From an uncultured Candidatus Saccharibacteria bacterium (GTDB lineage: Bacteria > Patescibacteriota > Minisyncoccia > Phycocordibacterales > UBA2100), in the NCBI GenBank assembly GCA_964512835.1, contig CAZELA010000002.1, forward strand, positions 28,603 to 92,602: a stretch of DNA of 64,000 nucleotides, written 5' to 3'. A model generated the notes under the pieces. The model did not search any database, had not been told where the DNA came from, and was given only the letters and a program-made list of their open reading frames with translations. Shown one piece after another: positions 5,587-57,629 of this stretch. Position 1 is the first letter of the stretch. Each line of letters begins with the position of its first letter. Made by a program: the position numbers and the translations under genes.

Positions 5587-5588
5587 GT

Positions 5589-8664: not shown

Positions 8665-8675
8665 GAAATTCATCT

Positions 8676-11353: not shown

Positions 11354-11433
11354 TGTGCGCGGGATGTGCGTCCGATACACACTCGCACGATTACGAACAA
11401 GAGGGACCTGTCACCGCAAGGTATACTTTTTGT

Positions 11434-21721: not shown

Positions 21722-22300
21722 ATGGAAGACTTCTCACAGTACCGGGATGAAATGGCAAAGTTCTACCGTGCCAACAAGCGGATGCCGTCATTCTCTGAAC
21801 TGATGAAGCTCTGGGACTACAAGACCAAGAGCGCGGTCAACTACAAGCTCGAACAGATGATCGATGCGGGGCTCGTGCGCAAGGACAAGAGCGGCCGCCT
21901 CATTCCGCACAAAATGGAAGACGATGCAGGACTTCCGCTCCTTGGCCTCGTCGAAGCGGGATTTCCGTCGCCGGCCGAAGAAGAGCTGCTCGATGTGCTT
22001 TCGTTCGACGAATATCTCACACCGAACAAAGAATCGAGCTACATCCTGAAGGTAAAAGGGGATTCCATGATTGATGCCGGTATCCGCGAAGGCGACATGG
22101 TCATTGTGGAGCGTCGCTCGTCGTACAAGGTGGGGCAGATTGTCATCGCATCGGTCGACGGCGAGTACACCATGAAGTATCTGCGCAAGAGCGGCGACAA
22201 ACATTATCTGGAGCCGGCGAACGAACGATACAAACCCATCTATCCGAAAGAATCCTTTCGGATCGAGGCGGTCGTTACAGCAGTCGTGCGGAAATATTAA
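21722..22300 (+). CDS. lexA: LexA repressor (S24 peptidase)
   Basis: N-terminal winged-helix region. C-terminal GDSM...KYLRK Ser/Lys dyad context. Confidence 0.85.
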   Translation: MEDFSQYRDEMAKFYRANKRMPSFSELMKLWDYKTKSAVNYKLEQMIDAGLVRKDKSGRLIPHKMEDDAGLPLLGLVEAGFPSPAEEELLDVLSFDEYLTPNKESSYILKVKGDSMIDAGIREGDMVIVERRSSYKVGQIVIASVDGEYTMKYLRKSGDKHYLEPANERYKPIYPKESFRIEAVVTAVVRKY

Positions 22301-22607
22301 TTCACTTCAAACCACAGCACCGTATGAAAAAAATAGATAACTGGCTCTCCATTCAGCGATACGTCGCGCAGGCCTCGCAGATCGTATCCGTTCCCACCAT
22401 GACCAACGTCGAGGTGTGGGGCAAAGTCCGCTCGAAACACGAAACCAGAAAGAACAGACGCTTCCTCGTTCCTCGCATTACAACCATTTAAAAGTTACCA
22501 CCATAAAAACATCCTATGAGAATCTCAATCACACTTACTCCGAAGTTCGCAACGTTTATCCGTCGCCTCTTCCGCGCACATCTCTACGTTCCGACGCGCT
22601 ACGAGGT

Positions 22608-23237
22608 ATGGAACGTGTAGCGAGCCTGAGCAGTAGGGCATTCGCTATCGTCGATGTTGAAACTACGGGTACCGGCCTCAATGATCGCGTCATCGAGATC
22701 GGAATCCTTCGCATCGAGAACGGTGTCTGTGTCGAAACGTTCAAAACTTTTTTAGATCCCGAACAGCCGATTTCTTCGTGGATCACCCGCCTCACCGGCA
22801 TTACAGACTCCGATGTGGAGAGTGCGCCGAGTTTTCTCGATGTGGCAGACCGTGTGGCGCGTTTGCTGCGGGGCGCGATCTTTGTGGCACACAACGCGGC
22901 ATTCGATTACGCGTTCATTAGACAGGAGTTTGCGCGCATCGACCGATTTTTCGAGGCGCGGTGTCTGTGCACCGTGAAGCTCTCGCGCTTGCTCTCTCCG
23001 CGGGCAAAGCGCCACAACCTGTCTGCAGTGATACGTCGACACAAGCTTTCGTGCGAATCGCGTCATCGAGCGTTTGATGATGCGCACGCACTCTGGCAGT
23101 TCATACAGTGGGGTGAGCGGCGGAAGGCGAGAACGCTCGCACATGCTATTGAACGACTTTTACACACCGACCGTACGCAGGAGCGCGTGCACGCACGCCG
23201 ACCTGAGTACTCCGAAGGCGAACAGGTTATTCGATAA
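22608..23237 (+). CDS. DEDDh 3'-5' exonuclease (DnaQ/epsilon-like)
   Basis: Exo I FAIVDVETTG, Exo II AHNAAFDYAF, Exo III H..D. Start trimmed to the Met of MERVASL. Confidence 0.75.
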   Translation: MERVASLSSRAFAIVDVETTGTGLNDRVIEIGILRIENGVCVETFKTFLDPEQPISSWITRLTGITDSDVESAPSFLDVADRVARLLRGAIFVAHNAAFDYAFIRQEFARIDRFFEARCLCTVKLSRLLSPRAKRHNLSAVIRRHKLSCESRHRAFDDAHALWQFIQWGERRKARTLAHAIERLLHTDRTQERVHARRPEYSEGEQVIR

Positions 23238-23249
23238 CACTATGAATCT

Positions 23250-24575
23250 ATGGCATGGGGATCATCCGGTTCGTTTCCGCGCGCAATACTCCACATCGAC
23301 GGGGATTCATTTTTTGCGGCATGCGAAGTGGCGAAGAACCCCAGCCTCCGCGGTAAGCCGGTCATAACAGGCAAAGAGCGAGGCATCGTATCCGCCGCGA
23401 CCTACGAAGCCAAGGCGCGCGGCGTAAAGCGCGGTGTACCGCTGCACGAAGCACTCAAGGCATGCCCCGATGCGATCATCCTGCCGTCGGATTACGAGAC
23501 GTACAGCCTGTTCTCGAATCGCATGTACGAGATCGTGCGCAGGTACACACCAGCAGTCGAGGAATATTCGATCGACGAATGTTTTGCCGATCTGACCGGA
23601 CTGCGCCGTACACTCCGTATGCCGTATCCGAAGATCGCCTTGAAGCTGCAGGAAGAACTTGAGAGTGAGCTCGGGCTCTCGTTCTCGATCGGGGTTGCAC
23701 CCACGAAGGTGCTCGCCAAGGTGGGTTCCAAGTGGAAGAAGCCGCACGGACTCACCATGATTCCGCTCTACGATGTGCATACATTCCTCGCGAAGACGCC
23801 GACTATCGGTGTGTGGGGCATCGGTCCGAACACCGCTGCGTACCTGCAGAAGTTCGGTATCCGCACTGCACTGGATTTTGTGAACCGTGACGAAGCAGAA
23901 GTTCGCGACATGGTTACAAAACCCATCTACGAGATCTGGAGAGAGCTCAAGGGTGAAGTGGTATACGAACTCGACACCGAAGGCCGCGGGTCGTACCAGT
24001 CGATCAGCAAGACCAAAACATTCACGCCACCCTCGAGCGATCCGCGATTCGTTGCGGCGCAACTCTCAAAGAATGTCGAGAATGCGTGCATCAAGGCGCG
24101 CCGCTGGGGTCTCGCCACACCGGAGATATTCTTTTTCCTCAAAACACAGGAATTCAAATACCACGGATGCGAGATCAAGCTCTCGCATCCGACCTGTATC
24201 CCGAACGACATTCTTTCGGCGGTCCGCACCCAATTTCTTCGGGTGTTCAAGAGAGGGACGCAGTACCGCGCTACAGGGATCGTGCTTATGAAATTGCAGG
24301 ACGCGAACAAGACGCAACTCGACCTGTTCGGCTCCGTGCTCAAGACCGAGGCCGCAAAATCGGTATACGAAAGTCTGGATGAGATTGCTGCCAAGTACGG
24401 CAAGCACGCGATATTCCTCGGATCGAGCTTCCATGCAATGAAGCCGCAGATGAGCAAGGTAGCGAACCATTCGCCGATAGCCCGCGAAGAAAAGCCTGCG
24501 CGTCACCGCGAACTGTTCAAGGGAGAAACCGCACGCAGACGACTGGGCGTCGCGTCGCTCGGCGAGGTGAACTAA
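23250..24575 (+). CDS. dinB: DNA polymerase IV (Y-family translesion polymerase)
   Basis: ILHIDGDSFFAACE, SIDECFADLT and a little-finger domain. 441 aa. Confidence 0.9.
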   Translation: MAWGSSGSFPRAILHIDGDSFFAACEVAKNPSLRGKPVITGKERGIVSAATYEAKARGVKRGVPLHEALKACPDAIILPSDYETYSLFSNRMYEIVRRYTPAVEEYSIDECFADLTGLRRTLRMPYPKIALKLQEELESELGLSFSIGVAPTKVLAKVGSKWKKPHGLTMIPLYDVHTFLAKTPTIGVWGIGPNTAAYLQKFGIRTALDFVNRDEAEVRDMVTKPIYEIWRELKGEVVYELDTEGRGSYQSISKTKTFTPPSSDPRFVAAQLSKNVENACIKARRWGLATPEIFFFLKTQEFKYHGCEIKLSHPTCIPNDILSAVRTQFLRVFKRGTQYRATGIVLMKLQDANKTQLDLFGSVLKTEAAKSVYESLDEIAAKYGKHAIFLGSSFHAMKPQMSKVANHSPIAREEKPARHRELFKGETARRRLGVASLGEVN

Positions 24576-27414: not shown

Positions 27415-28635
27415 ATGATCCTTCTCTCGCTTATTTCCTACGTCCTCGTACAGACGCTGGGGTTATTCATCGCATTCGCGGCAGCTGCGGTGCTTTTGTA
27501 TATGATTCTGCGGCGGTTTCATTCTCGAGCTATCACACTTACGTTGTGTGCGGTGTTCATCGGTATATCAATATTCTTTTACGTACCGAACGGTTTACCC
27601 AGCGGCTTTGAGTACGCCGCGTATCGCGCTACGTACGGACCCGCCGGAAAACCGTCCCTCCCATTCTGGAATGTCATCGCTTTCTTCCGGCACTTCAATG
27701 CATTTGAGCGTGTAGCTGATATCGCACACGACCCGAATCAGGTCGGAGAGCCGATCGCGCGGACCGCGACCAGCACCGTGCATGTCGACATTGTGGCAAA
27801 AGAAGTCATCTCTGAACTCGCGCCGGGTGTGTATCAGAATTTTTGGACCTACAACGGCACGGTGCCCGGCCCGATGGTGCGTGTGCGCGTAGGTGACACC
27901 GTCGTTGTAACGCTGAAGAACGATGAGTCGAGCCTCCACCCGCACACCATAGATTTCCACGCGGTCATCGGACCCGGAGGGGGAGCGGCGGTGCTGCTTG
28001 CGAATCCGGGCGAGACGAAAACGCTCACGTTCACCGCACTGCATCCGGGGCTGTTCGTATACCACTGCGCAGCGCAGAATCCTGCGGTGCACATGGCGCA
28101 TGGCCAGTACGGATTGATCCTTGTCGAACCGGAGACACCGTTGCCGCCGGTCGATCACGAGTACTACGTGATGCAGGGTGAGTTCTACACCACCGGAACG
28201 CTCGGCCAAAAAGGACTGCAAATATTCGATTCAAAAGCGATGCTCGACGGTATTCCGAATTACGTTGTGTTCAACGGCAGAACCGGCGCACTCGCCAAGA
28301 GTCTCAATGCGAAGTCAGGCGAAACCGTGCGCTTCTACGTGGGTAACGGCGGAGTAAATCTGATCTCGTCGTTCCACATCATCGGGACCGTGTTCGATCG
28401 CGTGTGGCAGGAAGGCTCGATCACAAGTCCGCCCGTCACCAACGTGCAAACAACACTCGTTCCGGCAGGTGGTTCAACAGTGGTTGACCTGACGCTGCGG
28501 GTACCGGGGAATTTTGTCCTCGTTGATCACGCGCTCGCGCGCGTAGACAAAGGTGCGTGGGGCGTGCTGCACGTCACCGGCGATCCTGAGCCCGGAGTAT
28601 TCCAGGGCCAAGCGCAGGAGATGAAAGGACACTAG
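27415..28635 (+). CDS. nirK: Copper-containing nitrite reductase (NirK, two-domain multicopper oxidase) with an N-terminal membrane anchor
   Basis: Two N-terminal transmembrane helices. Type 1 and type 2 copper-ligand motifs HTIDFHAV...GGG, LHPGLFVYHCA, HMAHGQYGLILVEP. Confidence 0.8.
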   Translation: MILLSLISYVLVQTLGLFIAFAAAAVLLYMILRRFHSRAITLTLCAVFIGISIFFYVPNGLPSGFEYAAYRATYGPAGKPSLPFWNVIAFFRHFNAFERVADIAHDPNQVGEPIARTATSTVHVDIVAKEVISELAPGVYQNFWTYNGTVPGPMVRVRVGDTVVVTLKNDESSLHPHTIDFHAVIGPGGGAAVLLANPGETKTLTFTALHPGLFVYHCAAQNPAVHMAHGQYGLILVEPETPLPPVDHEYYVMQGEFYTTGTLGQKGLQIFDSKAMLDGIPNYVVFNGRTGALAKSLNAKSGETVRFYVGNGGVNLISSFHIIGTVFDRVWQEGSITSPPVTNVQTTLVPAGGSTVVDLTLRVPGNFVLVDHALARVDKGAWGVLHVTGDPEPGVFQGQAQEMKGH

Positions 28636-29157: not shown

Positions 29158-29197
29158 AGCCCCGAAGCGATAGCTTCGGGGCTGACTATTTTTTGTG
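29158..29197. terminator. Bidirectional terminator shared by the small membrane gene and ssrA
   Basis: gccccgaagcgatagcttcggggc followed by tgactatttttt. Confidence 0.6.
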
Positions 29198-29585
29198 GAG
29201 GTGCGGGGAATTGAACCCCGGTCCAGAAAATGATTCACAGTCGTATCTACACGGCGTAGGGCATTCGATGTGTTTGAGTGCCGCGCGTTAAGAATGCACA
29301 AGATCGCGCAACACCGGACTCTCTTTCTTTAGGTCTGTGGTCGGAGTGAACCAAAGACCGGATCTGATGTTTATGACGTTCGGTAGCGCGCTATCAGATA
29401 CGCAACGCGCGAACGGTCGCCTGGCTTACGCGAGGACGAAGCCGAGATCCTTCATCTGAATCGGTGAAAGAGTCCCCCCTGCAGTTTTGTTTGCAGTTAG
29501 AATTTGGAACTTTTTAGGAAGTGTCCCACTTCCGCCATGCACAAAAGTAAACTGAATTTCCTGTCGAAGCCGATCACCCCCCACC
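29194..29585 (-). ncRNA. ssrA: tmRNA (SsrA)
   Basis: The reverse complement begins GGGGGGTGATCGGCTTCGACAGG and ends GGACCGGGGTTCAATTCCCCGCACCTCCACA, a tRNA-like 3' end with no encoded CCA. The internal tag reading frame ends ...QMKDLGFVLA-TAA. Adjacent to smpB. Confidence 0.8.
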
Positions 29586-30046: not shown

Positions 30047-30493
30047 TTATGATTCTTTTTTCAAAGAGCGGCGCATCCTGATGTCTTCCTCGCGCTTTTG
30101 AATCGTCTGCCGTTTATCTCCGTGCTTCTTGCCACGGGCGATCGCGATGGAGAGCTTCAAGTTACGTCCTTTATTATACACTGAAAGTGGTACCACTGTC
30201 AAACCTTTTTCGGATTCAGCGCCGCGAATATGGTCGATTTCTTTGCTGTTCAAGAGCAATCGGCGTGATCGCTCGGCGTCATACGTCTTCGGAGCGTTAG
30301 CCGGCTGCCACGCAGGGATGGTCGCGCCCACCAAGTACGCTTCGCCGCCGCGCGCCACAACGCGCGAACCCTTGAGCGAGCCCAAACCCGCGCGCAGCGA
30401 GCGGACTTCGTATCCGAACAATTCCAAGCCGGCCTCGATAGTTTCGAGGATCTGGTAGTCGAATCCGACGCGTTTATTCTCTATCAGCGACAT
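30047..30493 (-). CDS. smpB: SsrA-binding protein SmpB
   Basis: Start trimmed to MSLIENKRVGFDYQILE. GYEVRSLRAG...LVGATI, and a basic C-terminal tail. Confidence 0.85.
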   Translation of the reverse strand: MSLIENKRVGFDYQILETIEAGLELFGYEVRSLRAGLGSLKGSRVVARGGEAYLVGATIPAWQPANAPKTYDAERSRRLLLNSKEIDHIRGAESEKGLTVVPLSVYNKGRNLKLSIAIARGKKHGDKRQTIQKREEDIRMRRSLKKES

Positions 30494-30597
30494 CCGCATA
30501 CTATATAGTACGGAGGTCCAAAAAGACCACTTGGGGGCGTGTGAGCCCGAGGTCATATTTCTTTCATAAAGGGCTCGTTACTGTATACTCTCCCGAT

Positions 30598-38994: not shown

Positions 38995-39068
38995 CCGCCC
39001 TTAGCTCAGTTGGTTAGAGCATCGAGCTTATACCTCGAGGGTCCTTGGTTCGAGTCCAAGAGGGCGGA
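38995..39068 (+). tRNA. tRNA-Ile with anticodon UAU, no encoded CCA
   Basis: Cloverleaf by eye. Acceptor CCGCCCT/AGGGCGG, D-arm GCTCAGTTGGTTAGAGC, anticodon loop CTTATAC, T-arm CTTGGTTCGAGTCCAAG. Confidence 0.65.
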
Positions 39069-39106
39069 CATAAAATTGTTCCAATTTTCTGTCCGCCCTC
39101 TTGGAC
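39054..39106. repeat. Perfect 17-bp inverted repeat (extended hairpin) that includes the tRNA-Ile T-stem and acceptor 3' strand
   Basis: gtccaagagggcggaca ... tgtccgccctcttggac separated by a 19-nt loop that is itself palindromic (aaaattg..caatttt). Confidence 0.7.
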
Positions 39107-40208: not shown

Positions 40209-40688
40209 ATGGCCCACATCCACGACAAGATCGATTTCTGCGTCGAGGTGTTCATTGTGAACAACGGGCGTGTTTTGTTGCGCATGCACGACAAGCACAA
40301 GATCTGGCTCTCCGTCGGCGGTCACGTTGAGCTCGACGAAGACTTCAATCAGGCGGCTATCCGGGAGGTCAAAGAAGAAGTGGGTCTCGATATTACGCTC
40401 TGGGACTCCCGTAAATGGCCAGAGAATTCCGACGAACACTACAAAGAACTGATCCCGCCGCTCTCAATGGGCAGGCATCCGTCGGCAACTGCCGAGAAAC
40501 CCGCACACGAACACGTCGTGGCTGTCTATGTAGGGATTGCAGAGAGTGATGCGGTCACCATTCAGTACGAAGGGGACCGAAGCGACGAGTGGCGGTGGTT
40601 CACACGCGAAGAGCTCGACTCTGTCGATCTACGCACGAACGTCCGGAATTACGCGATCTTCGCGCTCGAGACGCTCGGGCACGCCTAG
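40209..40688 (+). CDS. NUDIX hydrolase
   Basis: Nudix box GGHVELDEDFNQAAIREVKEEVGL. Confidence 0.8.
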   Translation: MAHIHDKIDFCVEVFIVNNGRVLLRMHDKHKIWLSVGGHVELDEDFNQAAIREVKEEVGLDITLWDSRKWPENSDEHYKELIPPLSMGRHPSATAEKPAHEHVVAVYVGIAESDAVTIQYEGDRSDEWRWFTREELDSVDLRTNVRNYAIFALETLGHA

Positions 40689-40735
40689 TGTGGATTCCCG
40701 GATTTCCTTCGCGTGGGCCGTGCGACAATGAGTCC

Positions 40736-41848
40736 ATGAAATTCGGCGTCCGCGTCATTATCGCGTCGATACTCCTTGCGCCGGTGTTCGCGAGTGCGCA
40801 GTCGACGAGCGACCTCACGTCTCAGGCAGAAACGCTTTTGAAACAGATACAACAGCTCCAGGCGCAGCTTGGCGGCGGTAGTGCAACGGGCGGAGTGGCC
40901 GGTGCGTGTTATAGCGGCGGTCCGCTCAAGCCGGGTGCAAGCGGTGCGTCCGTATCCGCATTGCAACAATTTCTCGCAGCAGATCCCTCGGTGTATCCCG
41001 AGGCAAAAGTGACCGGCTACTATGGCGCACTCACACAAAAGGCCGTGCAGCGCTTTCAGGTAAAGAACGACATCGTTACATCCGGAACTCCGTCAACCAC
41101 CGGCTACGGGTCTGTCGGGCCGCGTACCGTTGCGGTCATGGCGGCAGCCTGCGGGGGAGCGTCCGACTCATCGGGGGATCCCGTCGTCGGCGGATTCATT
41201 AAAGTGTCACCCGTCGAAGGAAGCGCCCCGCTTACGGTGAATGTGGAGGTGACGATCAATACCGTCAAATCATGCCTGCCCGCTACGTACTCGCTCTCGT
41301 GGGGAGATAATTCACTCCCGTTCACCATCTCGGTACCGGCCGGCAAGTGCGATGTTGTCGCACAAACGTACACGCATCTCTACACGCTCGGAGGTGAATA
41401 CAACGTCACGCTCTCCTCGGGTCAGCATCAAACGACTTCAAAGGTTACCGTTTCGGGTAACGGATCGATCATGACCTCGGGCACGATGGACACGAATTTT
41501 GCGGGCGGTAGTGCGTCCACAGGGGGATCGACGACAGGAGGATCGTCTACGGGCGGTTCGTCCACCGGCGGACAGGTTGTCTCGGGCGCACTCGCTATTT
41601 CAATGAGCAGTAACTCTTTCTCGCCCGGCAACATAACGGTTACGAGCGGTACGCGGGTTACCTGGACTAATACCGACTCGATGCCGCACACCGTGACCGC
41701 AGACAACGGCAGCTATAACAGCGGGGCAATGTCTCCGGGACAGACGTATGCCCTCACGTTCACGGCAAAGGGCGAATACACCTATTATTGTGCGATCCAC
41801 GGTGCAAAAGGCGGTATCGGCATGTCCGGCAAAATTACCGTTCAGTAA
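40736..41848 (+). CDS. Secreted protein with an N-terminal peptidoglycan-binding (PG_binding_1-like) domain and a C-terminal type-1 copper cupredoxin (plastocyanin/azurin-like) domain
   Basis: Signal peptide MKFGVRVIIASILLAPVFASA. PG-binding region LKPGASGASVSALQQFLAAD...GYYGALTQKAVQRFQ. C-terminal copper ligands MPHTV ... YYCAIHGAKGGIGM. Confidence 0.65.
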   Translation: MKFGVRVIIASILLAPVFASAQSTSDLTSQAETLLKQIQQLQAQLGGGSATGGVAGACYSGGPLKPGASGASVSALQQFLAADPSVYPEAKVTGYYGALTQKAVQRFQVKNDIVTSGTPSTTGYGSVGPRTVAVMAAACGGASDSSGDPVVGGFIKVSPVEGSAPLTVNVEVTINTVKSCLPATYSLSWGDNSLPFTISVPAGKCDVVAQTYTHLYTLGGEYNVTLSSGQHQTTSKVTVSGNGSIMTSGTMDTNFAGGSASTGGSTTGGSSTGGSSTGGQVVSGALAISMSSNSFSPGNITVTSGTRVTWTNTDSMPHTVTADNGSYNSGAMSPGQTYALTFTAKGEYTYYCAIHGAKGGIGMSGKITVQ

Positions 41849-49173: not shown

Positions 49174-49560
49174 TTACGAAAGAATGCGTTCGACCTCGGC
49201 AACGAGCTGCGAGGGAAGGTGATCCGATTTGAGCAGGTACGCATCCGCCCCGAGTTCGGCAACGCGTGTAATGACCCCGTCGGCACCTGCATTCGTGAGC
49301 GCGATCATTCGTGCGCCCGGGGCAAGGTGTTCCTGTTTGATGGTCTCGAGGAACTCGAAGCCGCTCTTGCCGTCGGGCATGGTTATGTCAAACAGGATCG
49401 CGTCGGGTCTGATACCGCTTCGAAGTGCCGTAAGCGCGGTGTCGGCATCGCGGCATGTCACAACAACAAAGCCTGCCTGTTCGAAGGCGAGGCGGTACAT
49501 ATCGAGCAGGAACCGTTCGTCGTCGAGCATGAGAACCGTCTTTTTGGTCGGGGAATCCAT
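49174..49560 (-). CDS. Single-domain response regulator (CheY-like receiver)
   Basis: LMLDDE...D(phospho-acceptor)...T...K spacing. Paralog of the genes at 50065 and 62574. Confidence 0.75.
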   Translation of the reverse strand: MDSPTKKTVLMLDDERFLLDMYRLAFEQAGFVVVTCRDADTALTALRSGIRPDAILFDITMPDGKSGFEFLETIKQEHLAPGARMIALTNAGADGVITRVAELGADAYLLKSDHLPSQLVAEVERILS

Positions 49561-49648
49561 ATAGAAACGATACCCTGCAAATGAGGGCCTGGGGAGTATG
49601 ACGTGATTCCGCACGGTGGACATGGTAAGGTAGAGCGCGTACCAAAAC

Positions 49649-49735
49649 GGAGAGGTGCCAGAGCGGTCGAATGGAGCACACTGCTAATGTGTTGAGCGGG
49701 AAACCGTTCCGAGGGTTCGAATCCCTCCCTCTCCG
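49649..49735 (+). tRNA. tRNA-Ser (anticodon GCU), long variable arm, no encoded CCA
   Basis: GGAGAGG acceptor, 3-bp D-stem, anticodon loop CTGCTAA, variable arm TGAGCGGGAAACCGTTCC, T-arm GAGGGTTCGAATCCCTC. Confidence 0.8.
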
Positions 49736-49747
49736 CAATTACAAAAA

Positions 49748-49774
49748 CGCGCCCGCTAGGGCGCTTTTTTGTTT
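49748..49774 (+). terminator. Intrinsic terminator after tRNA-Ser
   Basis: gcgcccgctagggcgctttttt. Confidence 0.6.
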
Positions 49775-49775
49775 G

Positions 49776-50070
49776 CGGAGAGGAGGAGAGTGCGGGGCAC
49801 TCTCCGTGAGGGATTCGAAAGGTTTTGCGCGGGGCCCGTTAGTAAACGGGCTCGCAAAACCAGGCCCGAGAAACTTCTTGAGCGGCGGCGAAAGAAGTGT
49901 TCTTGGGCGCATCCCTCCCTCTGATTCGCAGGCGAGCGTTCCCGTGACCACGCGGGGATGGGCGAGCGTGGTCAGGAGGAGAAAAAGTGTGGCGACACTT
50001 TTTTGAGCGCTTGACCGAATCCCTCCCTCCGTACGGCGAAAGAAATGTTCTTGGGCGAATCCCTCTATTT
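49776..50070. repeat. Cluster of degenerate partial copies of the tRNA-Ser 5' and 3' ends, plus a 39-bp direct repeat. Interpreted as putative att-site or integration scars.
   Basis: ggagagg...gagggattcgaaagg (49780..49825). catccctccctctgattcg (49917..49935). cgaatccctccctccgtacgg (50008..50028). ggcgaaagaa(g/a)tgttcttgggcg(c/a)atccctc occurs twice (49887..49925 and 50033..50068). Confidence 0.6.
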
Positions 50071-50457
50071 CTTCCCCTCAATCAGACCTTTCACCGCTTC
50101 CACAAGGTCGGTGGGCGAGAGCTGCGACTTCACGAAGTGGCCGGTGGCTCCCAGATCCATTACTCGCCGGGTGTCTTCCTCTTTTGATTCGTTGGTGAGT
50201 GCCACCATGATCGACCTCGGAGCAAGCGCTTCTCTTTTTACGGTCTCGATGAACTCGAACCCGCTTATGTCGCCCATGTTTATATCAAACAATATGATGT
50301 CGGGCGTCGCGCCGCCTTTCAATGCTGCAATCGCGCTCGTCGGAGACGTAAATGACTGCGTTTGATATCCGGCATCTTGTAATCCTTTCTCGTACAGGTC
50401 GAGCAGTAGCCGCTCGTCATCGAGCAGCATTACGGAAACAGGTTTGAGATCGTTCAT
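50065..50457 (-). CDS. Single-domain response regulator (CheY-like)
   Basis: MNDLKPVSVMLLDDE..., paralog of the gene at 49174..49560. Confidence 0.75.
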   Translation of the reverse strand: MNDLKPVSVMLLDDERLLLDLYEKGLQDAGYQTQSFTSPTSAIAALKGGATPDIILFDINMGDISGFEFIETVKREALAPRSIMVALTNESKEEDTRRVMDLGATGHFVKSQLSPTDLVEAVKGLIEGKK

Positions 50458-50486: not shown

Positions 50487-51407
50487 ATGTGGCAATTGCG
50501 AGTGATAAACTTGAACAAAATGAAACCGGCCCCATTCGTTGCTTCAGTAGTGCTCCTCGTTGCCGGGGTCGTCATGTACCTACTCACGCGCGGCGCCGAT
50601 ATCCCTGTCTTACATCCGTCGGGTCCGATAGCCCTCGCGGAGTATCGCGTGATCCTTGTTACATTCCTCCTTTCCGCGCTCATCATCGTGCCCGTTTTCT
50701 TTTTGCTGTTCTTTTTTTCGTGGCGATATCGGGCCCAAGGTCCGGATACACAGAAACATCATCATCCGACCTGGGATCATGAGAACGCAGCCGTCGAATT
50801 TCTCTGGTGGCTTATACCGGCAGGGATCATCGGCGTCCTGTCGGTCGTCGCATGGCAGAGTTCGCATGCGCTTGATCCATATGTGCGTATACCGGGGGAA
50901 CGCACAGTCGAGGTGCAGGTCGTGGCTCTGCAGTGGAAGTGGTTGTTCATATATCCCGAACTCGGTCTCGCATCGGTCAATGAGCTTGTTATTCCGGTAG
51001 GAACGCCGGTTCATTTTTCGCTCACCGGGGATGCGCCGATCAATTCTTTTTGGATACCCAGTCTCGGCGGACAGATCATGGTCATGCAGGGTATGCAGAC
51101 GCAGCTGAACCTGCTTGCTTCAGAGGCGGGCACGTTCGAGGGGTGGTCGGGTAATCTCTCCGGCAGGGGATTTTCAAAGATGATGTTCAAGGTGCGAGCG
51201 CTTCCGACGGATCAATACGAATCCTGGGTTGAGCGGGCGCAGCACGACACGACCACTCCGCTGAACGCGGAAAACTACGTGTCGCTTTCCGCGCCGACTG
51301 AGGGACATTCCGTTACGTATTATTATCCGGTGGATCCTGACTTGTATACTTCGATCCATACCAAATACATGAGCGCGCCGGTCGCTGAGCATAGTCATTC
51401 GATATGA
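50487..51407 (+). CDS. cyoA: Quinol oxidase subunit II (CyoA-like; the CuA ligand Cys residues are absent)
   Basis: Signal or transmembrane N-terminus. The region ELVIPVGTPVHFSLTGDAPINSFWIPSLGGQIMVMQGMQTQLNL resembles the E. coli CyoA core. No CxExC CuA motif. Start may be the Met at 50520. Confidence 0.75.
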   Translation: MWQLRVINLNKMKPAPFVASVVLLVAGVVMYLLTRGADIPVLHPSGPIALAEYRVILVTFLLSALIIVPVFFLLFFFSWRYRAQGPDTQKHHHPTWDHENAAVEFLWWLIPAGIIGVLSVVAWQSSHALDPYVRIPGERTVEVQVVALQWKWLFIYPELGLASVNELVIPVGTPVHFSLTGDAPINSFWIPSLGGQIMVMQGMQTQLNLLASEAGTFEGWSGNLSGRGFSKMMFKVRALPTDQYESWVERAQHDTTTPLNAENYVSLSAPTEGHSVTYYYPVDPDLYTSIHTKYMSAPVAEHSHSI

Positions 51408-53371
51408 GCCTGCAGTCCATTCTCTTCGGAAAGCTTTCTCTCGACGTGTTCCCGCACGATATTGTCGCGATCGGCGGGGTCGTATTCATGCTCACGTGTT
51501 CGCTCATCGTTCTCGCGCTGATATCCCGTGGTCACCTGTGGGCATATCTCTGGAAGGAATGGCTCACATCGCTCGATGCAAAGAAGATCGGCATGATGTA
51601 CATCGCAGTGTCCCTTGTCATGTTGGTGCGAGGGCTTGCCGACGTACTGCTTATGCGTACGCAGCAGGCGCTCTCCGTCGGCGCGTCCAACGGCATACTC
51701 GACCCGTCGCATTTCCAGCAGGTATTCACGGCGCACGGCACGATCATGATCTTCTTCGTGGCGATGGGTGTGATGTTCGGTCTCATAAACCTCATCGTGC
51801 CGCTCCAGATCGGCGCCCGTGACGTCGCGTTTCCGTTCCTGAACTCCGTCAGCTTCTGGCTATTCGCGTTCGGGGCACTCCTGGTGAATGTGTCGCTTGT
51901 CCTCGGCGATTTTTCCACCGCGGGCTGGCTTGCATATCCGCCGCTGTCCGGGATTGAGTTTAGTCCGAACTCCGGCGTCGACTACTGGATATGGAGCCTT
52001 CAGATAAGCGGATTGGGTAGTCTGCTCTCAGGTGTCAATTTCATCACAACAATCGTCACAAAGCGCGCGACCGGTATGACGTACATGCGGCTGCCTATGT
52101 TTGTATGGACGGTCTTGGGCTCAATGGTTCTTGTTGTGGTCGTGTTTCCGATTCTCACGGTCACGCTTTCGCTCCTGAGTCTCGATCGCACACTGGGAAT
52201 GCACTTTTTCACTGCGGAGCTTGGCGGCAACATGATGATGTATGTGAATCTGATATGGGCGTGGGGACATCCCGAGGTGTACATTTTGATCCTGCCTGCG
52301 TTCGGAATCTTCTCGGAAATCGTGCCGGTGTTCTCCGGCAAAAAACTCGCCGGATACCGTTCGATGGTGTTTTCTGTGATCGCGATCGGATTTTTGTCGT
52401 TCCTCGTCTGGCTACATCACTTTTTCACCATGGGTGCGGGTGCGAACGTTAATGCATTCTTCGGGATCATGACTGCGGTTATTGCAGTGCCGACCGGGGT
52501 AAAAATATTCAACTGGATCTTCACGATGTATCGCGGCCGCATTCGGCTTGTGAATGCGATGCAATGGTTCATGGGATTCACGGTGCTTTTCACGATCGGG
52601 GGAGTGACGGGTGTTGTGCTGTCACAGCCGCCTGCTGATTTTCAGTTGCACAACACGCTGTTCCTCGTCGCACACTTTCACAACATGATCGTCAGTGGTG
52701 TGTTGTTCGGATACTTTGCGGGGATCACGTTCTGGTTCCCGAAATTCTTCGGTTTCAGACTCAACGAGCGTATCGGCTCGTGGGCCATCTGGTCGTGGAT
52801 CGTTGGGTTCGTGCTTGCGTTCATGCCGCTCTACATTCTCGGGTTCATGGGCGCGACACGTCGCCTCGACCATTACGATGCCTCGCTCGGTTGGCAGGGA
52901 TTGTTCATTGTGGCGGGTGTGGGTGCGCTCATTATTGCGCTCGGATTCGTATTGCAGCTCGTGCAGCTGTGGGTGAGCGTGCGTGACCGCCGCACGACGC
53001 GTGATACAACAGGTGATCCGTGGGATGGCCGGTCGCTCGAGTGGAGCACTGTCTCTCCGCCGCCCGTGTACAACTTTGCGGTGCTGCCGGTTGTTCATGC
53101 GCGTGATCAGTTTTGGGTAACCAAAGAAGGGGGTGTGCGGCAGGAGCAGCACTACACCGATATCATCATGCCCAAGAACTCCGCACTCGGTATCGGGATC
53201 GCTGCCTGTGCGTTCCTGTTCGGTTTCGGCGTGGTCTGGCACATCGTGTGGATGATCTCGCTCGGCGTCCTCGCCGGTATCGCACTGTTTACGCATCGCA
53301 TGTACCTCGAAGAGAGCGATACGGAATATGTCATCCCCGCAGAAACAGTGCGTCGCATGGAAACACTATGA
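51404..53371 (+). CDS. cyoB: Heme-copper quinol oxidase subunit I
   Basis: WAWGHPEVYILILPAFGIFSEIV and conserved His ligands. 655 aa, overlaps cyoA by 4 bp. Confidence 0.9.
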   Translation: MSLQSILFGKLSLDVFPHDIVAIGGVVFMLTCSLIVLALISRGHLWAYLWKEWLTSLDAKKIGMMYIAVSLVMLVRGLADVLLMRTQQALSVGASNGILDPSHFQQVFTAHGTIMIFFVAMGVMFGLINLIVPLQIGARDVAFPFLNSVSFWLFAFGALLVNVSLVLGDFSTAGWLAYPPLSGIEFSPNSGVDYWIWSLQISGLGSLLSGVNFITTIVTKRATGMTYMRLPMFVWTVLGSMVLVVVVFPILTVTLSLLSLDRTLGMHFFTAELGGNMMMYVNLIWAWGHPEVYILILPAFGIFSEIVPVFSGKKLAGYRSMVFSVIAIGFLSFLVWLHHFFTMGAGANVNAFFGIMTAVIAVPTGVKIFNWIFTMYRGRIRLVNAMQWFMGFTVLFTIGGVTGVVLSQPPADFQLHNTLFLVAHFHNMIVSGVLFGYFAGITFWFPKFFGFRLNERIGSWAIWSWIVGFVLAFMPLYILGFMGATRRLDHYDASLGWQGLFIVAGVGALIIALGFVLQLVQLWVSVRDRRTTRDTTGDPWDGRSLEWSTVSPPPVYNFAVLPVVHARDQFWVTKEGGVRQEQHYTDIIMPKNSALGIGIAACAFLFGFGVVWHIVWMISLGVLAGIALFTHRMYLEESDTEYVIPAETVRRMETL

Positions 53372-53952
53372 GTACGACACCGGTGCACACGGACGGACAC
53401 GAGGATCGTACGAGTTTGTACGGATTCTGGATATACCTGATGACGGATTTCATGCTGTTTGCAGCACTATTTTCCGTATTCATTGTGCTGCGGGGCAACA
53501 TTTTTGCATCCGGTCCTGGTGTGTTCTTTGATCTGCGGTCAGTGCTAGCTGAAACGCTCATACTCCTCACGAGTTCGTTCACATGCGGTCTGTTCTTATT
53601 GAGTGCTCGGGCAGGGCACGACCGTGCGGTCCTTACATGGATGTACATCACGGTTCTTCTCGGCGCGGCGTTCTTGTGTATCGAGATCGCCGAGTTCCGC
53701 GACCTCATCAATGCGGGCATGGGTCCGCAGTCGAGCGGGTTTTTCTCCGCGTTCTTTACGTTGGTCGGGACCCACGGTCTGCATATTCTCGCCGGTCTCA
53801 TTTGGATGGTGTCGCTCGCGGCAGCGATCGTACAGCGCGGACTCACGCCATCGAACATGCGTAAGCTTGTTCTGTTGAGTATGTTCTGGCACTTCCTTGA
53901 TATCGTCTGGATATTCATTTTCACTATCGTGTATCTCATCGCGATCGTATGA
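53368..53952 (+). CDS. cyoC: Quinol oxidase subunit III
   Basis: Start MSTTPVHTDGHEDRTSLYGFWIYLMTDFMLFAALF. Five transmembrane helices. ATGA overlap with cyoB. Confidence 0.8.
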   Translation: MSTTPVHTDGHEDRTSLYGFWIYLMTDFMLFAALFSVFIVLRGNIFASGPGVFFDLRSVLAETLILLTSSFTCGLFLLSARAGHDRAVLTWMYITVLLGAAFLCIEIAEFRDLINAGMGPQSSGFFSAFFTLVGTHGLHILAGLIWMVSLAAAIVQRGLTPSNMRKLVLLSMFWHFLDIVWIFIFTIVYLIAIV

Positions 53953-54341
53953 CAAACCACAAAGACTATTTCGGAGAGGTGGGAGTATGGCACAAGGGTG
54001 CGCGGCATCTTGAGCGTACCTATGTGCTCGGATTTCTGTTTTCGCTGATCCTTACGCTTACCGCGTACACCGTCAGCGTGTACCACATCGTCCCGAAGAC
54101 CGTACTCATTCCGATGCTGCTTGTTCTCGCCTGTCTGCAGTTCATGACCCAAGTGCTCGGGTTTCTCCATGTGAGCGGCGCTCCGGCATCACGGGATCGG
54201 TTGATAGCGCTTCTATACTGCACGGTGCTCGCGCTCGTTCTCGTTGTGGGCTCCATGTGGATCATGATGAATCTGCAGTCACGCATGATGACCGACGCCG
54301 GCACGCAGGAACGCTACATGATGAAAGAGCGGGGTATATAA
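53949..54341 (+). CDS. cyoD: Quinol oxidase subunit IV
   Basis: 130 aa, three transmembrane segments. Position in the operon. Confidence 0.65.
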   Translation: MTNHKDYFGEVGVWHKGARHLERTYVLGFLFSLILTLTAYTVSVYHIVPKTVLIPMLLVLACLQFMTQVLGFLHVSGAPASRDRLIALLYCTVLALVLVVGSMWIMMNLQSRMMTDAGTQERYMMKERGI

Positions 54342-54343
54342 CT

Positions 54344-55192
54344 ATGCTCCGCGACTACTACCGGCTCGCGAAACCGGGGATTGTATACGGGAACCTTCTG
54401 ACCGTTGTTGCAGGATTTCTCTTTGCGTCGCACGCTGCACCGCACCCGATTCTGCTTTCTGCGCTCGTGGTCGGCATGGCCCTCGTCATCGGAGGTTCGT
54501 GTGTACTCAATAATGTTTTTGACCGCGACATCGATGCGCACATGAGCCGGACGAAACTGCGTGCAACCGTGACCGGCACGATTACTGTCACGAGATCTCT
54601 CGCGTACGGCATCGTGCTCATGGTTCTCGGTCTCGTGATCCTCGTGCTGTATACGAATATGCTTACAACCGCTGTTGCGGCCGCCGGTGTGCTTGCGTAT
54701 GTCGGTGTCTATACGCCGCTTAAACGTGTGACCCGAATACATACTCTGATAGGAAGTATTGCAGGGGCGGTTCCGATACTTGCGGGCTACGCCGCATGCG
54801 CGAACGAAATAGGTGCGACCGGCATGCTGCTGTTTCTCATCATGATGCTCTGGCAGATGCCGCATTTTTACGCGATCGCGATATACCGCGCCTCCGACTA
54901 CGCGGCCGCCGGTGTGCCGACGCTGCTCTCAGAGGCAGGAATCAGCGCAACAAAGACCGCAGTACTCGTCTACATTGCGTCGTTCGGTCTGGCACAGGCG
55001 TCCCTATTCGTGATCGGCGCGACCGGGTATGTGTACTTTGTCGTAACCTCGGCGTTTGCCATATCGTGGTTTGTTCGGGCACTTCGCGCATCCGCTGACG
55101 ACGTGCAGTGGGCGAGGGGACTGTTCGGATTTTCGCTCCGCGTATTGATCGCGCTCTCTGCGGCGCTCGCGTTCTCGTCGCTTCTTCCGTGA
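54344..55192 (+). CDS. cyoE: Protoheme IX farnesyltransferase (heme O synthase)
   Basis: MLRDYYRLAKPGIVYGNLLTVVAGFLFAS... UbiA-family motif NNVFDRDIDAHMSRTKLR. Confidence 0.85.
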   Translation: MLRDYYRLAKPGIVYGNLLTVVAGFLFASHAAPHPILLSALVVGMALVIGGSCVLNNVFDRDIDAHMSRTKLRATVTGTITVTRSLAYGIVLMVLGLVILVLYTNMLTTAVAAAGVLAYVGVYTPLKRVTRIHTLIGSIAGAVPILAGYAACANEIGATGMLLFLIMMLWQMPHFYAIAIYRASDYAAAGVPTLLSEAGISATKTAVLVYIASFGLAQASLFVIGATGYVYFVVTSAFAISWFVRALRASADDVQWARGLFGFSLRVLIALSAALAFSSLLP

Positions 55193-55262
55193 CCGATGAA
55201 AGGGTTGCATACCGGTTTTTCATGTGTACTATGTTCGTATATACGAACAAATATGGGACTGT

Positions 55263-55670
55263 ATGGCACTTACCGCGACTAAAGAAGACTATTTACGTGC
55301 GATCTACCGACTCCAGGAAGACGGCGCGCCCCAGGTGCGTGCGATTGACCTTGCTGCAAAACTGAACCTGAGTCGCTCGACCGTATCGGAGCGGCTCCAA
55401 GAGCTCTCGCGCCAGCGCCTGGTGAATTCGCCGAAATACGGCGCGGTATCGCTCACCAAAAAGGGTAATGAAATAGCAGCAAATCTCACCCGCAAGCACC
55501 GGCTTGTAGAGGTGTTCCTGATAAAGATTCTGGGCATGAAACCGTCCGAGGTGCATGAAGAGGCGCACGCTCTTGAACACGCACTCAGCGATACGGTGGC
55601 GGCACGGCTCGAGAAACTGCTCGGATCACCCACGACAGATCCGCACGGCAGGCACATTCCGAAACAGTGA
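55263..55670 (+). CDS. mntR: DtxR/MntR-family metal-dependent transcriptional regulator
   Basis: EDYLRAIYRLQEDG...VSERLQEL helix-turn-helix and a metal-binding His/Glu cluster (HEEAHALEH). Confidence 0.75.
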   Translation: MALTATKEDYLRAIYRLQEDGAPQVRAIDLAAKLNLSRSTVSERLQELSRQRLVNSPKYGAVSLTKKGNEIAANLTRKHRLVEVFLIKILGMKPSEVHEEAHALEHALSDTVAARLEKLLGSPTTDPHGRHIPKQ

Positions 55671-55671
55671 T

Positions 55672-56973
55672 ATGAATACACCTACCAAATCGCTCTCTGA
55701 AGTTCATCGAACCGTTGATGTTCCGAAGACGGCGTCCTTCATTAAAAAACTCATCGCTTTTTCCGGTCCCGGATATTTGGTCGCAGTCGGGTACATGGAT
55801 CCGGGGAACTGGGCGACCGATCTTGCCGGCGGATCGCAGTTCGGTTACGCGCTCCTGTTTGTGATTGCGTGTTCGAGTGTGATCGCGATGATCCTGCAGC
55901 ATCTCGCCGCAAAGGTGGGTATCGTGACGGGGCGCGATCTCGCGCAGTTGTGCCGCGAGTCCTACTCACGACCGGTCAGTCTGCTTCTGTGGATCTCTGC
56001 AGAGCTCATGATCATTGCCTGCGATCTTGCGGAGGTGATCGGGTCGGCGATCGCACTCAATCTACTCTTTGGTATCCCGCTTGCCCTTGGCATCATCATC
56101 ACGGCGGCGGACGTATTACTGCTTCTTCTGCTACAGAACAAAGGCTTCCGCTATCTTGAGGCGCTCATCATGGTTCTGATTGCGACCATCGTCGCATGCT
56201 TCAGTTACGAACTCGCACTCTCTCACCCCATGATCGGACCCATGCTTGCCGGGTTCATACCGACTACGCAGCTGTTTACGAACACCGAAATGCTGTTCAT
56301 TGCACTCGGCATCATCGGTGCCACGGTTATGCCGCATAATCTCTTCATTCACTCATCCGTCGTGCAGACACGACGGTACGAAGAGGACGAGGAGGGGAAG
56401 CGGGAGGCGGTCAAATTCGCGACGATCGATTCTATGATTGCGCTTACAATCGCGTTCTTTGTGAATGCGGCGATTCTGATCGTTGCGGCGGCGGCTTTCT
56501 ACGCAACGGGAAATACGGATGTGACGGAGATACAGGATGCATACCATCTCCTCGCACCCGTACTCGGTGTGTCATTTGCGGGGATATTGTTCGGCGTGGC
56601 GCTCCTCGCGGCAGGGCAGAACTCGACCATCACAGGGACGCTCGCCGGGCAGATCATCATGGAGGGATTCTTGAACTGGCGCATCGCACCGTGGCTACGC
56701 CGCATCATCACGCGGCTTATCGCCATCGTCCCTGCACTCGCGGTGATTCTGTTTTTCCAGGACTACGGCTTGGGCAAATTGCTTGTACTGAGTCAGGTAA
56801 TACTCAGTCTCCAGCTGCCATTCATTGTTATCCCGTTGGTCAGGTTTTCGGGCGATTGGGGACTGATGGGACCGTTCACAAACGGTCGCATGCTCGCGTC
56901 GGTCTCCTGCGGGATCGCCGCGATCCTGGTGGTTCTCAACGGGTGGCTCATCTATTCGGCAATCGTTCTCTAG
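55672..56973 (+). CDS. mntH: NRAMP-family divalent metal (Mn2+/Fe2+) transporter
   Basis: GPGYLVAVGYMDPGNWATDLAGGSQFGY signature. 11 to 12 transmembrane helices. Confidence 0.85.
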   Translation: MNTPTKSLSEVHRTVDVPKTASFIKKLIAFSGPGYLVAVGYMDPGNWATDLAGGSQFGYALLFVIACSSVIAMILQHLAAKVGIVTGRDLAQLCRESYSRPVSLLLWISAELMIIACDLAEVIGSAIALNLLFGIPLALGIIITAADVLLLLLLQNKGFRYLEALIMVLIATIVACFSYELALSHPMIGPMLAGFIPTTQLFTNTEMLFIALGIIGATVMPHNLFIHSSVVQTRRYEEDEEGKREAVKFATIDSMIALTIAFFVNAAILIVAAAAFYATGNTDVTEIQDAYHLLAPVLGVSFAGILFGVALLAAGQNSTITGTLAGQIIMEGFLNWRIAPWLRRIITRLIAIVPALAVILFFQDYGLGKLLVLSQVILSLQLPFIVIPLVRFSGDWGLMGPFTNGRMLASVSCGIAAILVVLNGWLIYSAIVL

Positions 56974-57629
56974 GCTCGCGCAAGCGCAAGCAACGTAACA
57001 TGTGCACCCGCCTCTCGAAGCGGTGCGCCTGCATGCACAAGTGTGGCACCGGTCGTCGCAACGTCGTCTATTACGTACACATACGCATCTCGTACAAGAT
57101 CGGGATCGGACACTGCAAATGCGCCGGCGACATTCGACAGGCGTGCGGCTCGAACCAGTTTCGTCTGCTGTCGGGTCGGGCGCGAACGTTCGAGTACGGG
57201 AGAGGCTATGCGCGAGAGCGTGCCGTTCTTGAATTCATCGGGCAGCGCGTCAGTAACGAGGCCGATCTGGTTGTAGCCGCGGTCGCGGCGGCGTTTGGCG
57301 TCGAGCGGTACCGGTATAAGCAGTACCGGTTTCTGCGAGAACAGTTTTTTTGATGCGATGTCTTCCCGCAGAAACTCTGCGAGTGCGACCGAGAGCAGGT
57401 GTGCGCTTCGAGTCGAGCGGTCATACTTGAGCGACTGGATAGGGTCCTTCAGGTTGTTGTACGTGCCGAGCGTCGTGACTTCCTGTCCGAGCATGGTGTG
57501 CGTCTCAGCGGCCAGGACGAGGTCCTCGGGCTTGAGGTCCTCTGCGCGTATGCGGCGCTCGCTTCGGGGGAGGATCAGGTCGAGGACGGAGCTCAGTATC
57601 TTTGTCGTGCGGTACAGCAAGGCGTCCAT
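56970..57629 (-). CDS. comFC: ComF family protein (ComFC, phosphoribosyltransferase fold)
   Basis: C-terminal PRTase motif VYVIDDVATTGATL. 219 aa. Confidence 0.7.
   Translation of the reverse strand: MDALLYRTTKILSSVLDLILPRSERRIRAEDLKPEDLVLAAETHTMLGQEVTTLGTYNNLKDPIQSLKYDRSTRSAHLLSVALAEFLREDIASKKLFSQKPVLLIPVPLDAKRRRDRGYNQIGLVTDALPDEFKNGTLSRIASPVLERSRPTRQQTKLVRAARLSNVAGAFAVSDPDLVRDAYVYVIDDVATTGATLVHAGAPLREAGAHVTLLALARA

Follow-up and report, generated by a model that had tools for sequence, protein, structure and literature searches.

An ultra-small, presumed fermentative bacterium of the Candidate Phyla Radiation (CPR) encodes a terminal oxidase, in the form of a cyoABCDE quinol oxidase operon that is followed by an mntR-mntH pair in a 64-kb stretch of contig CAZELA010000002.1 (the whole stretch analyzed is hereafter called the window, and the seven genes together the segment). 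Such operons are known but unexplained in these bacteria. In the absence of quinone biosynthesis, they have been described in Saccharibacteria, e.g. T. rhizospherense (Starr 2018, PMC6031116, which cites Kantor 2013 for an earlier case in Saccharibacteria), in soil Saccharibacteria, Parcubacteria and Doudnabacteria, together with a CyoB tree suggesting lateral transfer (Nicolas 2021, PMC8407418), and in groundwater Patescibacteria (PMC9938205), and they were summarised in Castelle 2017 (PMC5220378) and in a 2026 review (PMC13293708). Published readings of their role are O2 scavenging or detoxification, or else partial respiration with scavenged quinone and heme (PMC8407418, PMC6031116, PMC5220378, PMC9938205, PMC13293708), so that neither scavenging of O2 as a role nor the lack of a quinone source is a new proposal for CPR bacteria. 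To these the window adds a well-resolved case, whose new details are the fixed locus, the co-divergence of the operon with its flanks, a candidate cyoA promoter motif, a putative mntR operator and small elements at a tRNA-Ser gene. We consider it likely that the operon encodes a functional bo3-type oxidase inherited vertically within one subclade after an ancient gain in a plasticity zone, that mntR-mntH is a separate unit, and that the tRNA scars nearby are unrelated to the borders of the operon.

The oxidase operon and its functional residues

All seven genes of the segment were identified and found intact by Pfam and NCBIfam searches (Table 1), which bears out the complete cyoABCDE operon and mntR-mntH pair announced by an earlier sequence-only reading of the window. 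The cyo genes are ordered A-B-C-D-E and end with a heme O synthase gene, whose translation contains the NxxxDxxxD and PHF...DY..AG motifs; a CtaA-like heme A synthase gene was not found in the 64 kb. Alignment with eight relatives placed the start of cyoA most likely at 50520 (MKPAPF...) and not at 50487, where the longest open reading frame (ORF) begins. The 4-bp overlaps that had been described throughout the operon were found, as ATGA, at three junctions, whereas cyoD and cyoE are separated by a 2-nt gap. For all four subunits CyoA-D, the Cyo models of NCBIfam outscored the Qox and Cta models.

Table 1. Features of the locus and of the related contigs, with positions in the window unless a contig handle (L number) is given; rc, reverse complement.
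Feature	Coordinates	Strand	Evidence or remark
cyoA, quinol oxidase subunit II	50520..51407 (longest ORF from 50487)	+	Pfam COX2 + COX_ARM; TIGR01433 242.5 bits, equivalog cut-off 266.2
cyoB, subunit I (carries heme b, the heme o3-CuB centre, the proton channels and the quinol site)	51404..53371	+	COX1 2.8e-142; TIGR02843 990 bits (989.8, equivalog cut-off 1020.4)
cyoC, subunit III	53368..53952	+	Pfam COX3; TIGR02842 221.7 bits, equivalog cut-off 223.8
cyoD, subunit IV	53949..54341	+	Pfam COX4_pro; TIGR02847 73.2 bits, equivalog cut-off 81.5
cyoE, heme O synthase (protoheme IX farnesyltransferase)	54344..55192	+	UbiA 2.6e-50; TIGR01473 249 bits, cut-off 210
GTGATAAACT motif, read as extended -10 (TGnTAAACT)	50502..50511	+	8 nt before cyoA ATG; conserved in 8 genomes
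Palindrome TGTTCGTATATACGAACA (perfect, 18 bp), putative MntR operator	55232..55249	+	sequence; conserved at same place in relatives
mntR, two-domain DtxR/MntR-family metalloregulator	55263..55670	+	Pfam Fe_dep_repress + Fe_dep_repr_C
mntH, NRAMP-type Mn2+/Fe2+ importer	55672..56973	+	Nramp 8e-135; NF001923 613.7 bits, cut-off 430
comFC (ComF family), fixed right-hand border of variable interval	56970..57629	-	TIGR00201 6.7e-19
RR1, single-domain response regulator (CheY-like receiver)	49174..49623	-	Pfam Response_reg 9e-17; divergent from tRNA-Ser
tRNA-Ser(GCU)	49649..49736	+	ARAGORN; Rfam tRNA 55.2 bits
GC-rich hairpin with T-run on both strands, bidirectional terminator-like	49749..49764	+	terminator scan; directly after tRNA
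Hairpin-rich relic region from tRNA-Ser 3' end	49775..50069	+	repeat search, motif clustering
RR2, single-domain response regulator	50065..50457	-	Pfam Response_reg 5.6e-19; divergent from cyoA
Element family at tRNA-Ser	window 49775-50069; L084 190-412, 3376-3515; L082 6885-7030 (rc); L095 3728-3860 (rc)		
tRNA-Ser(ACU)	L081 7981-8068; L084 3243-3330; L089 8286-8373; L137 9048-9133	L081 -; L084 +; L089 +; L137 -	
NirK, copper nitrite reductase	27415..28635	+	TIGR02376 307 bits, cut-off 296; PDB 6THE 1e-96
Peptidoglycan-binding protein with C-terminal plastocyanin/amicyanin-like cupredoxin domain	40589..41848	+	

CyoB of the window could be aligned end to end with CyoB of E. coli (PDB 8F68/1FFT; residues 1-647, 58% identity, E = 1e-253). 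All four quinol-site residues (R71, D75, H98 and Q101) are kept, as are the heme b ligands H106/H421, the heme o3 ligand H419, the CuB ligands H284/H333/H334, the cross-linked Tyr288, D135/E286 of the D-channel, K362 of the K-channel, and R481 and R482. The 16 catalytic, channel and quinol-site residues that were checked showed no variation across eight clade genomes; H98 is substituted in 10 of 23 other CPR CyoB sequences and in none of the window clade. No frameshift or inactivating change, which the sequence-only reading had named as a finding that would count against it, was observed in cyoB, whose ORF is intact. The same reading had claimed that subunit II lacks the CuA cysteine ligands and resembles E. 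coli CyoA, and this was confirmed: the 306-aa translation of cyoA does not contain a single cysteine and therefore has neither a CuA site nor a lipobox, its COX_ARM domain was recognised at 7.8e-10, and it matched E. coli CyoA (PDB 1fft_B, aligned residues 17-283) at 1e-64.

The five cyo ORFs are intact, with coupled junctions, in eight genomes, and identity among clade members is 48-67% for CyoA, CyoD and CyoE. Pairwise ratios of nonsynonymous to synonymous substitution rates (dN/dS) against the two closest relatives, which are approximate because dS is saturated, were 0.06-0.29 for cyoA-E, 0.03 for mntH and 0.07 for comFC. Judged from these sequence features, the operon is complete, and the bo3-type quinol oxidase that it encodes, whose subunit II is without CuA, appears to be functional.

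Upstream of cyoA, a motif with the consensus GTG(A/C)TA(A/C)ACT sits 7-9 nt 5' of the ATG in eight of eight genomes, despite their unrelated upstream neighbours; eight of its ten positions are invariant and the two bracketed ones vary between A and C. We infer that this motif (GTGATAAACT in the window) is an extended -10 promoter giving a leaderless or near-leaderless transcript from 50520. The cyo genes would then probably be transcribed from a conserved promoter of their own, as a near-leaderless, translationally coupled mRNA.

Position of the operon and its relatives

The operon is carried by the chromosome of a soil member of the Paceibacterota (Parcubacteria, CPR). The rest of the window is housekeeping in character, with genes for L6, SecY, Gmk, PurD, Ndk, RNase J, IF3, LexA, DinB, SmpB, FtsH and RecG, a transfer-messenger RNA (tmRNA) and type IV pilus genes. 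At the same locus, cyoABCDE was found in seven relatives (L081, L082, L084, L085/86, L087, L088 and L089), in which variable cargo follows the operon before comFC on the minus strand, a pterin-4a dehydratase gene and pilM. Identities between these relatives and the window were 76-84% for CyoB and, in the loci that include the genes, 81-82% for RecG and 91-94% for PilM. The arrangement of comFC with the pterin-4a dehydratase gene and pilM was syntenic in more than 30 related loci.

Between cyoE and comFC, mntR-mntH was present in the window, L081, L085 (where the contig ends within mntH), L087 and L088, so that the pair stands there in five of the eight clade genomes; L088 also carries PurK, L084 has mntH alone with an AIRS-domain gene, and L082 has nothing. 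In L081 and L089 the cargo includes genes for a FIST sensor, a histidine kinase and a response regulator (L081 15680-18521 and L089 13884-16701, between cyoE/mntH and comFC), a set which may be an oxidase-associated signalling module. On the other side, the upstream neighbour of cyoA is the response regulator gene RR2 (42% identical to RR1 in its product) in the window and, as orthologues at the same position, in L081, L084, L085/86 and L087, that is, in five of the eight genomes; it is a glyoxalase gene with a gene for a 400-aa protein in L082, and copper or heavy-metal resistance genes in L088 and L089. Common to both sets of resistance genes (L089 1-8003 and L088 1-4715) are CsoR, a P-type ATPase and DUF305; L089 adds CDF, DsbD and a cupredoxin, and it also has a large serine recombinase next to a pair of tRNA-Ser genes.

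The operon and its flanks showed the same pattern of relatedness. L081 and L089 are mutually closest in CyoA, CyoB (90%), CyoC and CyoE, and the same holds for comFC, PilM and p238; L087 is closest to the window in comFC (77%) and near-closest in CyoB (83%, against 84% for L085, which is without comFC). Since the identity matrices of cyo and of the backbone agree, we conclude that the operon was inherited vertically with its flanks within the clade. Every close-clade locus (PilM 91-94% to the window) contained cyo. A metagenome scan with PilM added about 35 more distant relatives (PilM 67-76%), all of which have the arrangement comFC-pterin-4a dehydratase-pilM-pilB and none of which has cyo beside comFC. 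Two of these, L108 and L118, which represent sister lineages, cover enough upstream sequence to reveal the whole backbone, in the order recG(-), holin-like gene, tRNA-Ser(GCU), about 4 kb, comFC, pterin-4a dehydratase gene and pilM, with other cargo in place of cyo: NUDIX, fumarase and PurT genes in L118, where a small ORF after the tRNA resembles a GIY-YIG nuclease by eye, and genes for a FAD-linked oxidase (5219-6871) and a Flavodoxin_2 protein similar to NAD(P)H:quinone reductases (8210-8794) in L108. From the other cargo of L108 and L118 it follows that the interval between tRNA-Ser and comFC is an old plasticity zone, in which only the window subclade carries cyo. With the cargo of L108, the slot can also be seen to be repeatedly occupied by redox genes.

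The closest CyoB sequences (76-84%) came from soil metagenomes and metagenome-assembled genomes (MAGs), the named one being Candidatus Paceibacterota MBP9757705.1 (83%). Matches in genome collections reached 59-71% in MAGs of Paceibacterota, Kaiserbacteria and Saccharibacteria, and 55-60% in Proteobacteria; among the protein matches, 100% was reached by a single 7.4-kb JGI contig. In a neighbour-joining tree of CyoB, midpoint-rooted and built without outgroup or support values, all CPR-labelled sequences, joined by a few MAG contigs that bear the labels Nevskiaceae, Dormibacterota or 'bacterium', formed one clade apart from the Proteobacteria; the window clade was monophyletic and its sister consisted of two soil Paceibacterota MAGs. 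Other cyo-bearing Paceibacterota (L001, L002, L016, L018 and L024) shared no flanking genes with the window. The simplest account is probably a single ancient gain of the five-gene cassette, drawn from a CPR-wide CyoB lineage, into the interval.

Fragments at tRNA-Ser and alternative histories

The tRNA-Ser(GCU) gene was found at the syntenic place in L081, L082, L086, L089, L108 and L118, in either orientation, and is inverted even between close relatives. In the window it is followed by the terminator-like hairpin, which is the centre of a 23-nt inverted repeat (I1, 49728-49783), and by the relic region. This region contains one inverted copy of the tRNA 3' end (49775-49819, with GAGGGATTCGAA at 49808-49819), which is broken by a 23-nt hairpin, and three partial copies in direct orientation (49902-49921, 50010-50029 and 50050-50069), the last of which adjoins the stop codon of RR2. 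It also holds a direct repeat of 32 nt (49886-49917 and 50034-50065), and the 13-mer GAATCCCTCCCTC occurs, with at most two mismatches, three times within 330 nt next to the tRNA. The multiple tRNA-end fragments reported by the sequence-only reading are thus present, and the tRNA does lie upstream of the operon, but not immediately so, as RR2 stands between the scars and cyoA. Because all fragments lie between the tRNA and RR2, and none beyond cyo or mntH, they cannot mark the borders of cyo. As a candidate distal attachment site, GAATCCCTCCCTC was found only once elsewhere in the 64 kb, as a chance match with two mismatches inside mntH, and was rejected.

The 328-nt region folds far better than its shuffled versions on both strands (z-scores of -6.6 for the plus and -7.4 for the minus strand), from which it follows that an RNA strand is not assignable and that palindromes at the DNA level explain the folding equally well. 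An Rfam scan of 49600-50100 returned the tRNA and otherwise noise below threshold. ARAGORN, run relaxed with introns allowed, proposed only implausible tRNA-Arg/Gly genes with 70-270-nt introns across the inverted and direct copies, which we treated as artefacts caused by the tRNA-like ends.

Related elements follow tRNA-Ser in L082, L095 and L084, the last with two copies, one of them without an upstream tRNA within the contig. They share an architecture of GGGATTCGAA, hairpins and a closing GAC|CGAATC junction; the 13-20 nt that follow the junction agree with the type of the local tRNA (CCCTCCCTC at GCU-type sites and TCGCTCTC at the ACU-type site of L084). L081, L089 and L108 do not carry the element, whose presence is polymorphic among relatives. 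Its junction GACCGAATCCCTCCCTCTCCGC was not found in viral contigs; the plain tRNA-Ser 3' end, tried as a clue to a phage attachment site, occurs in more than 120 viral contigs and is too generic to inform. Remnants of integrative elements targeted to tRNA genes are direct repeats, at the attachment (att) sites, of the tRNA 3' end. The elements described here resemble these in the partial 3'-end copies after an intact tRNA, the conserved element side, the terminal 13-20 nt that fit the local tRNA and the polymorphic presence, but differ in their length of 100-330 nt, the lack of an integrase, the inverted copy, the many hairpins and the fact that cyo is not enclosed. These features fit small relics of insertions at tRNA-Ser, or decayed partial duplications of the tRNA, at a recombination-prone spot; as relics of this kind, the fragments would be unrelated to the boundaries of cyo. 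A more speculative idea, which we think rather unlikely, is that the 100-330-nt blocks are previously undescribed miniature non-autonomous elements, which would insert at the T-loop of tRNA-Ser genes (of both the GCU and the ACU type), regenerate its 3' end, leave the native end displaced and mark a recombination hotspot that reshuffles cargo. If this were true, the cargo of the hotspot would include the O2-related cyo, mntRH, sensor-kinase and metal-resistance genes.

Serine tRNAs with an adenosine at position 34 are unusual for bacteria. Such a second tRNA-Ser, with the anticodon ACU (A34), was present beside tRNA-Ser(GCU), or in its place, in four independent assemblies (Table 1).

If cyo-mntRH were a mobile element recently integrated into the 3' end of tRNA-Ser, with the fragments as its att scars, one might expect an integrase and a distal repeat; yet no integrase or recombinase domain was found in the ORFs between 46 and 58 kb of the window, beyond mntH or comFC there is no repeat of the tRNA end, and the fragments, all upstream of RR2, exclude cyo. 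Such an island would agree with the tRNA-end copies 3' of the tRNA, with an interval that varies among relatives, with a tRNA that flips its orientation between close relatives (one way in L086, L082 and L089, the other way in the window, L081 and L084), with the large serine recombinase and metal-resistance island of L089 at the same spot and with a tetranucleotide profile of the segment that deviates more than any other in the window. The GC content of the segment, however, equals that of the rest of the window (0.552 versus 0.560), GC at third codon positions is in the normal range of other genes, and dS is saturated even between the closest relatives, which indicates long residence. Since the operon occupies the same locus in seven relatives and co-diverges with comFC, pilM and recG, any acquisition is old and clade-wide, and is not that of a recent tRNA-integrated island; we regard the latter as very improbable and largely refuted. 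What stands of the island that the sequence-only reading had proposed is the variable interval, as seen in L108 and L118, and a plausible gain, but the gain is ancient and clade-wide and the fragments do not border cyo. A proteobacterial operon misjoined to CPR DNA during assembly or binning is extremely improbable: the cyo operon is classically proteobacterial and a number of related contigs bear the label Nevskiaceae or Dormibacterota, but the junctions RR-cyoA, cyoE-mntR and mntH/comFC-pilM recur in at least six independent assemblies (NCBI, ENA, Logan, JGI), CyoB shares no more than 55-60% identity with sequences of Proteobacteria and groups within a CPR clade, and mntH and comFC overlap by 4 bp.

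The oxidase could also be a decaying relic, inoperable without quinone and heme synthesis and heading for loss. NADH dehydrogenase, quinone-synthesis and bc1 genes are lacking among the genes of the 64-kb window, as the sequence-only reading had stated, as are genes for any quinone-reducing enzyme and for heme biosynthesis; CPR genomes generally lack such genes (PMC8407418, PMC9938205), and the low identity of CyoA, CyoD and CyoE within the clade points the same way. Against decay speak the five intact ORFs with their coupled junctions in eight genomes, the invariant catalytic residues, the dN/dS values of cyoA-E and the conserved promoter motif, and we judge a relic to be very improbable. Several observations nevertheless weigh against a functional, vertically inherited oxidase of ancient gain. 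CyoA-D score narrowly under the NCBIfam equivalog cut-offs (Table 1), and with the genes named above missing from the window, substrate supply and activity have to be deduced. The evidence for the promoter and the leaderless transcript is a conserved motif, and the CyoB tree has the constraints of its method; instead of a gain in the window clade, cyo may have been lost from the sister lineages. At 0.269 (versus 0.181 ± 0.029), the tetranucleotide distance of the segment exceeds that of every other 6.5-kb stretch, a deviation that is expected from a run of polytopic membrane proteins but would fit a foreign origin as well. Such proteins are encoded by six of the seven genes of the segment, and they also account for its strong negative AT skew.

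The mntR-mntH pair, electron supply and other genes of the window

The product of mntR scored below the equivalog cut-offs of all MntR and DtxR models of NCBIfam, and that of mntH is 86-93% identical to its relatives; the end of mntH forms the overlap with the convergent comFC. The palindrome TGTTCGTATATACGAACA lies between a promoter-like TTGCAT-N16-TACTAT and the start of mntR. With at most two changes it recurs at the same place in the four mntR-bearing relatives L081, L085, L087 and L088, whereas L084, where mntH stands without mntR, has no such palindrome. Control of cyo by MntR was considered and rejected, as no second TGTTCGTATATACGAACA operator was present in the window at up to four mismatches. 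Given a promoter-like sequence of its own and the conserved putative operator, mntR-mntH forms a separate unit and its link to cyo is adjacency only; from its sequence, the unit is probably autoregulated. Of the coupling between the pair and the oxidase that the sequence-only reading had suggested, only the adjacency stands, with the pair in full in no more than five of eight genomes. The literature on Patescibacteria yielded no relevant link between manganese uptake and cyo. The pair would serve a separate, autoregulated uptake of Mn2+/Fe2+, frequently housed in the same zone and plausibly useful under oxidative stress.

By analogy with bo3 of E. coli, CyoE would convert heme B to heme O, and CyoB would accept electrons from membrane quinol at R71/D75/H98/Q101 and relay them via heme b to the heme o3-CuB centre, where O2 would be reduced to water while protons are pumped through the intact D and K channels. 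The quinol would be supplied by a dehydrogenase encoded outside the window, and the quinone itself would most likely be scavenged, in line with proposals for other members of the CPR. Physiologically, the enzyme may serve O2 consumption or aerotolerance, with a possible gain in proton-motive force. Intact genes under purifying selection, a canonical quinol site, a probable promoter of its own and vertical inheritance at a fixed site argue that the enzyme is used. Use of the enzyme sharpens the existing question of where quinone and heme come from; the main idea is already in print.

The operon has the five-gene order of E. coli bo3 (CyoABCD with CyoE; PDB 1FFT, 6WTI, 7CUB and 8F68), and the two oxidases have in common the heme and CuB ligands, the His-Tyr pair, the D and K channels and the quinol site of a CyoB that is 58% identical over its full length, as well as a CuA-less CyoA with a C-terminal COX_ARM. 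They differ in that CyoA of the window lacks the lipoprotein cysteine and CyoD is longer (130 versus 109 aa), in the CPR host without visible quinone and heme synthesis in the window, in the apparently leaderless promoter and in scores just below the equivalog cut-offs. The aa3-600 oxidase of B. subtilis (QoxABCD, PDB 6KOB) is likewise a four-subunit, CuA-less quinol oxidase of the A family, and QoxB matched at 2e-193; however, the Cyo models scored clearly higher for the four subunits, and the window has a heme O synthase and no heme A synthase. Closest in kind are the cyo operons of soil and groundwater CPR bacteria (PMC8407418, PMC6031116, PMC5220378, PMC9938205), which share the operon, its order, the missing quinone biosynthesis, the proposed roles and the inferred lateral origin, and with whose lineages CyoB of the window clusters. 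In contrast to these, the window operon has a fixed position between tRNA-Ser and comFC, co-diverges with its flanks, adjoins mntR-mntH and keeps His98 of the quinol site. Neither this neighbourhood nor the mnt link nor the tRNA scars were found in the CPR cyo literature that we compared.

A second respiratory-type enzyme of the window, unmentioned in the sequence-only reading, is the copper nitrite reductase NirK (Table 1), which has an N-terminal extension of about 100 aa. The peptidoglycan-binding protein with the cupredoxin domain, encoded just upstream of a 1485-aa peptidoglycan-binding/PKD protein in a pair that is kept in L081, may be an extracytoplasmic electron carrier for NirK. NirK with the cupredoxin, the mnt adjacency and the small elements at tRNA-Ser are modest additions for annotators of CPR genomes.

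Elsewhere in the window, a LexA-like S24 repressor, an RNase T-family exonuclease and a DinB-type polymerase are encoded consecutively at 21722-24575 and form an SOS-like cluster. A 962-aa protein (11353-14241, plus strand) gave weak matches to TraD/VirD4-type coupling proteins (TraG-D_C; TIGR03743 2.7e-14), with no other conjugation genes near it. The tmRNA (29195-29581, minus strand) has the tag peptide ANKTAGGTLSPIQMKDLGFVLA and adjoins smpB (30047-30556), and a tRNA-Ile(UAU) (38995-39069, plus strand) would decode AUA without a lysidine-modified CAU tRNA.

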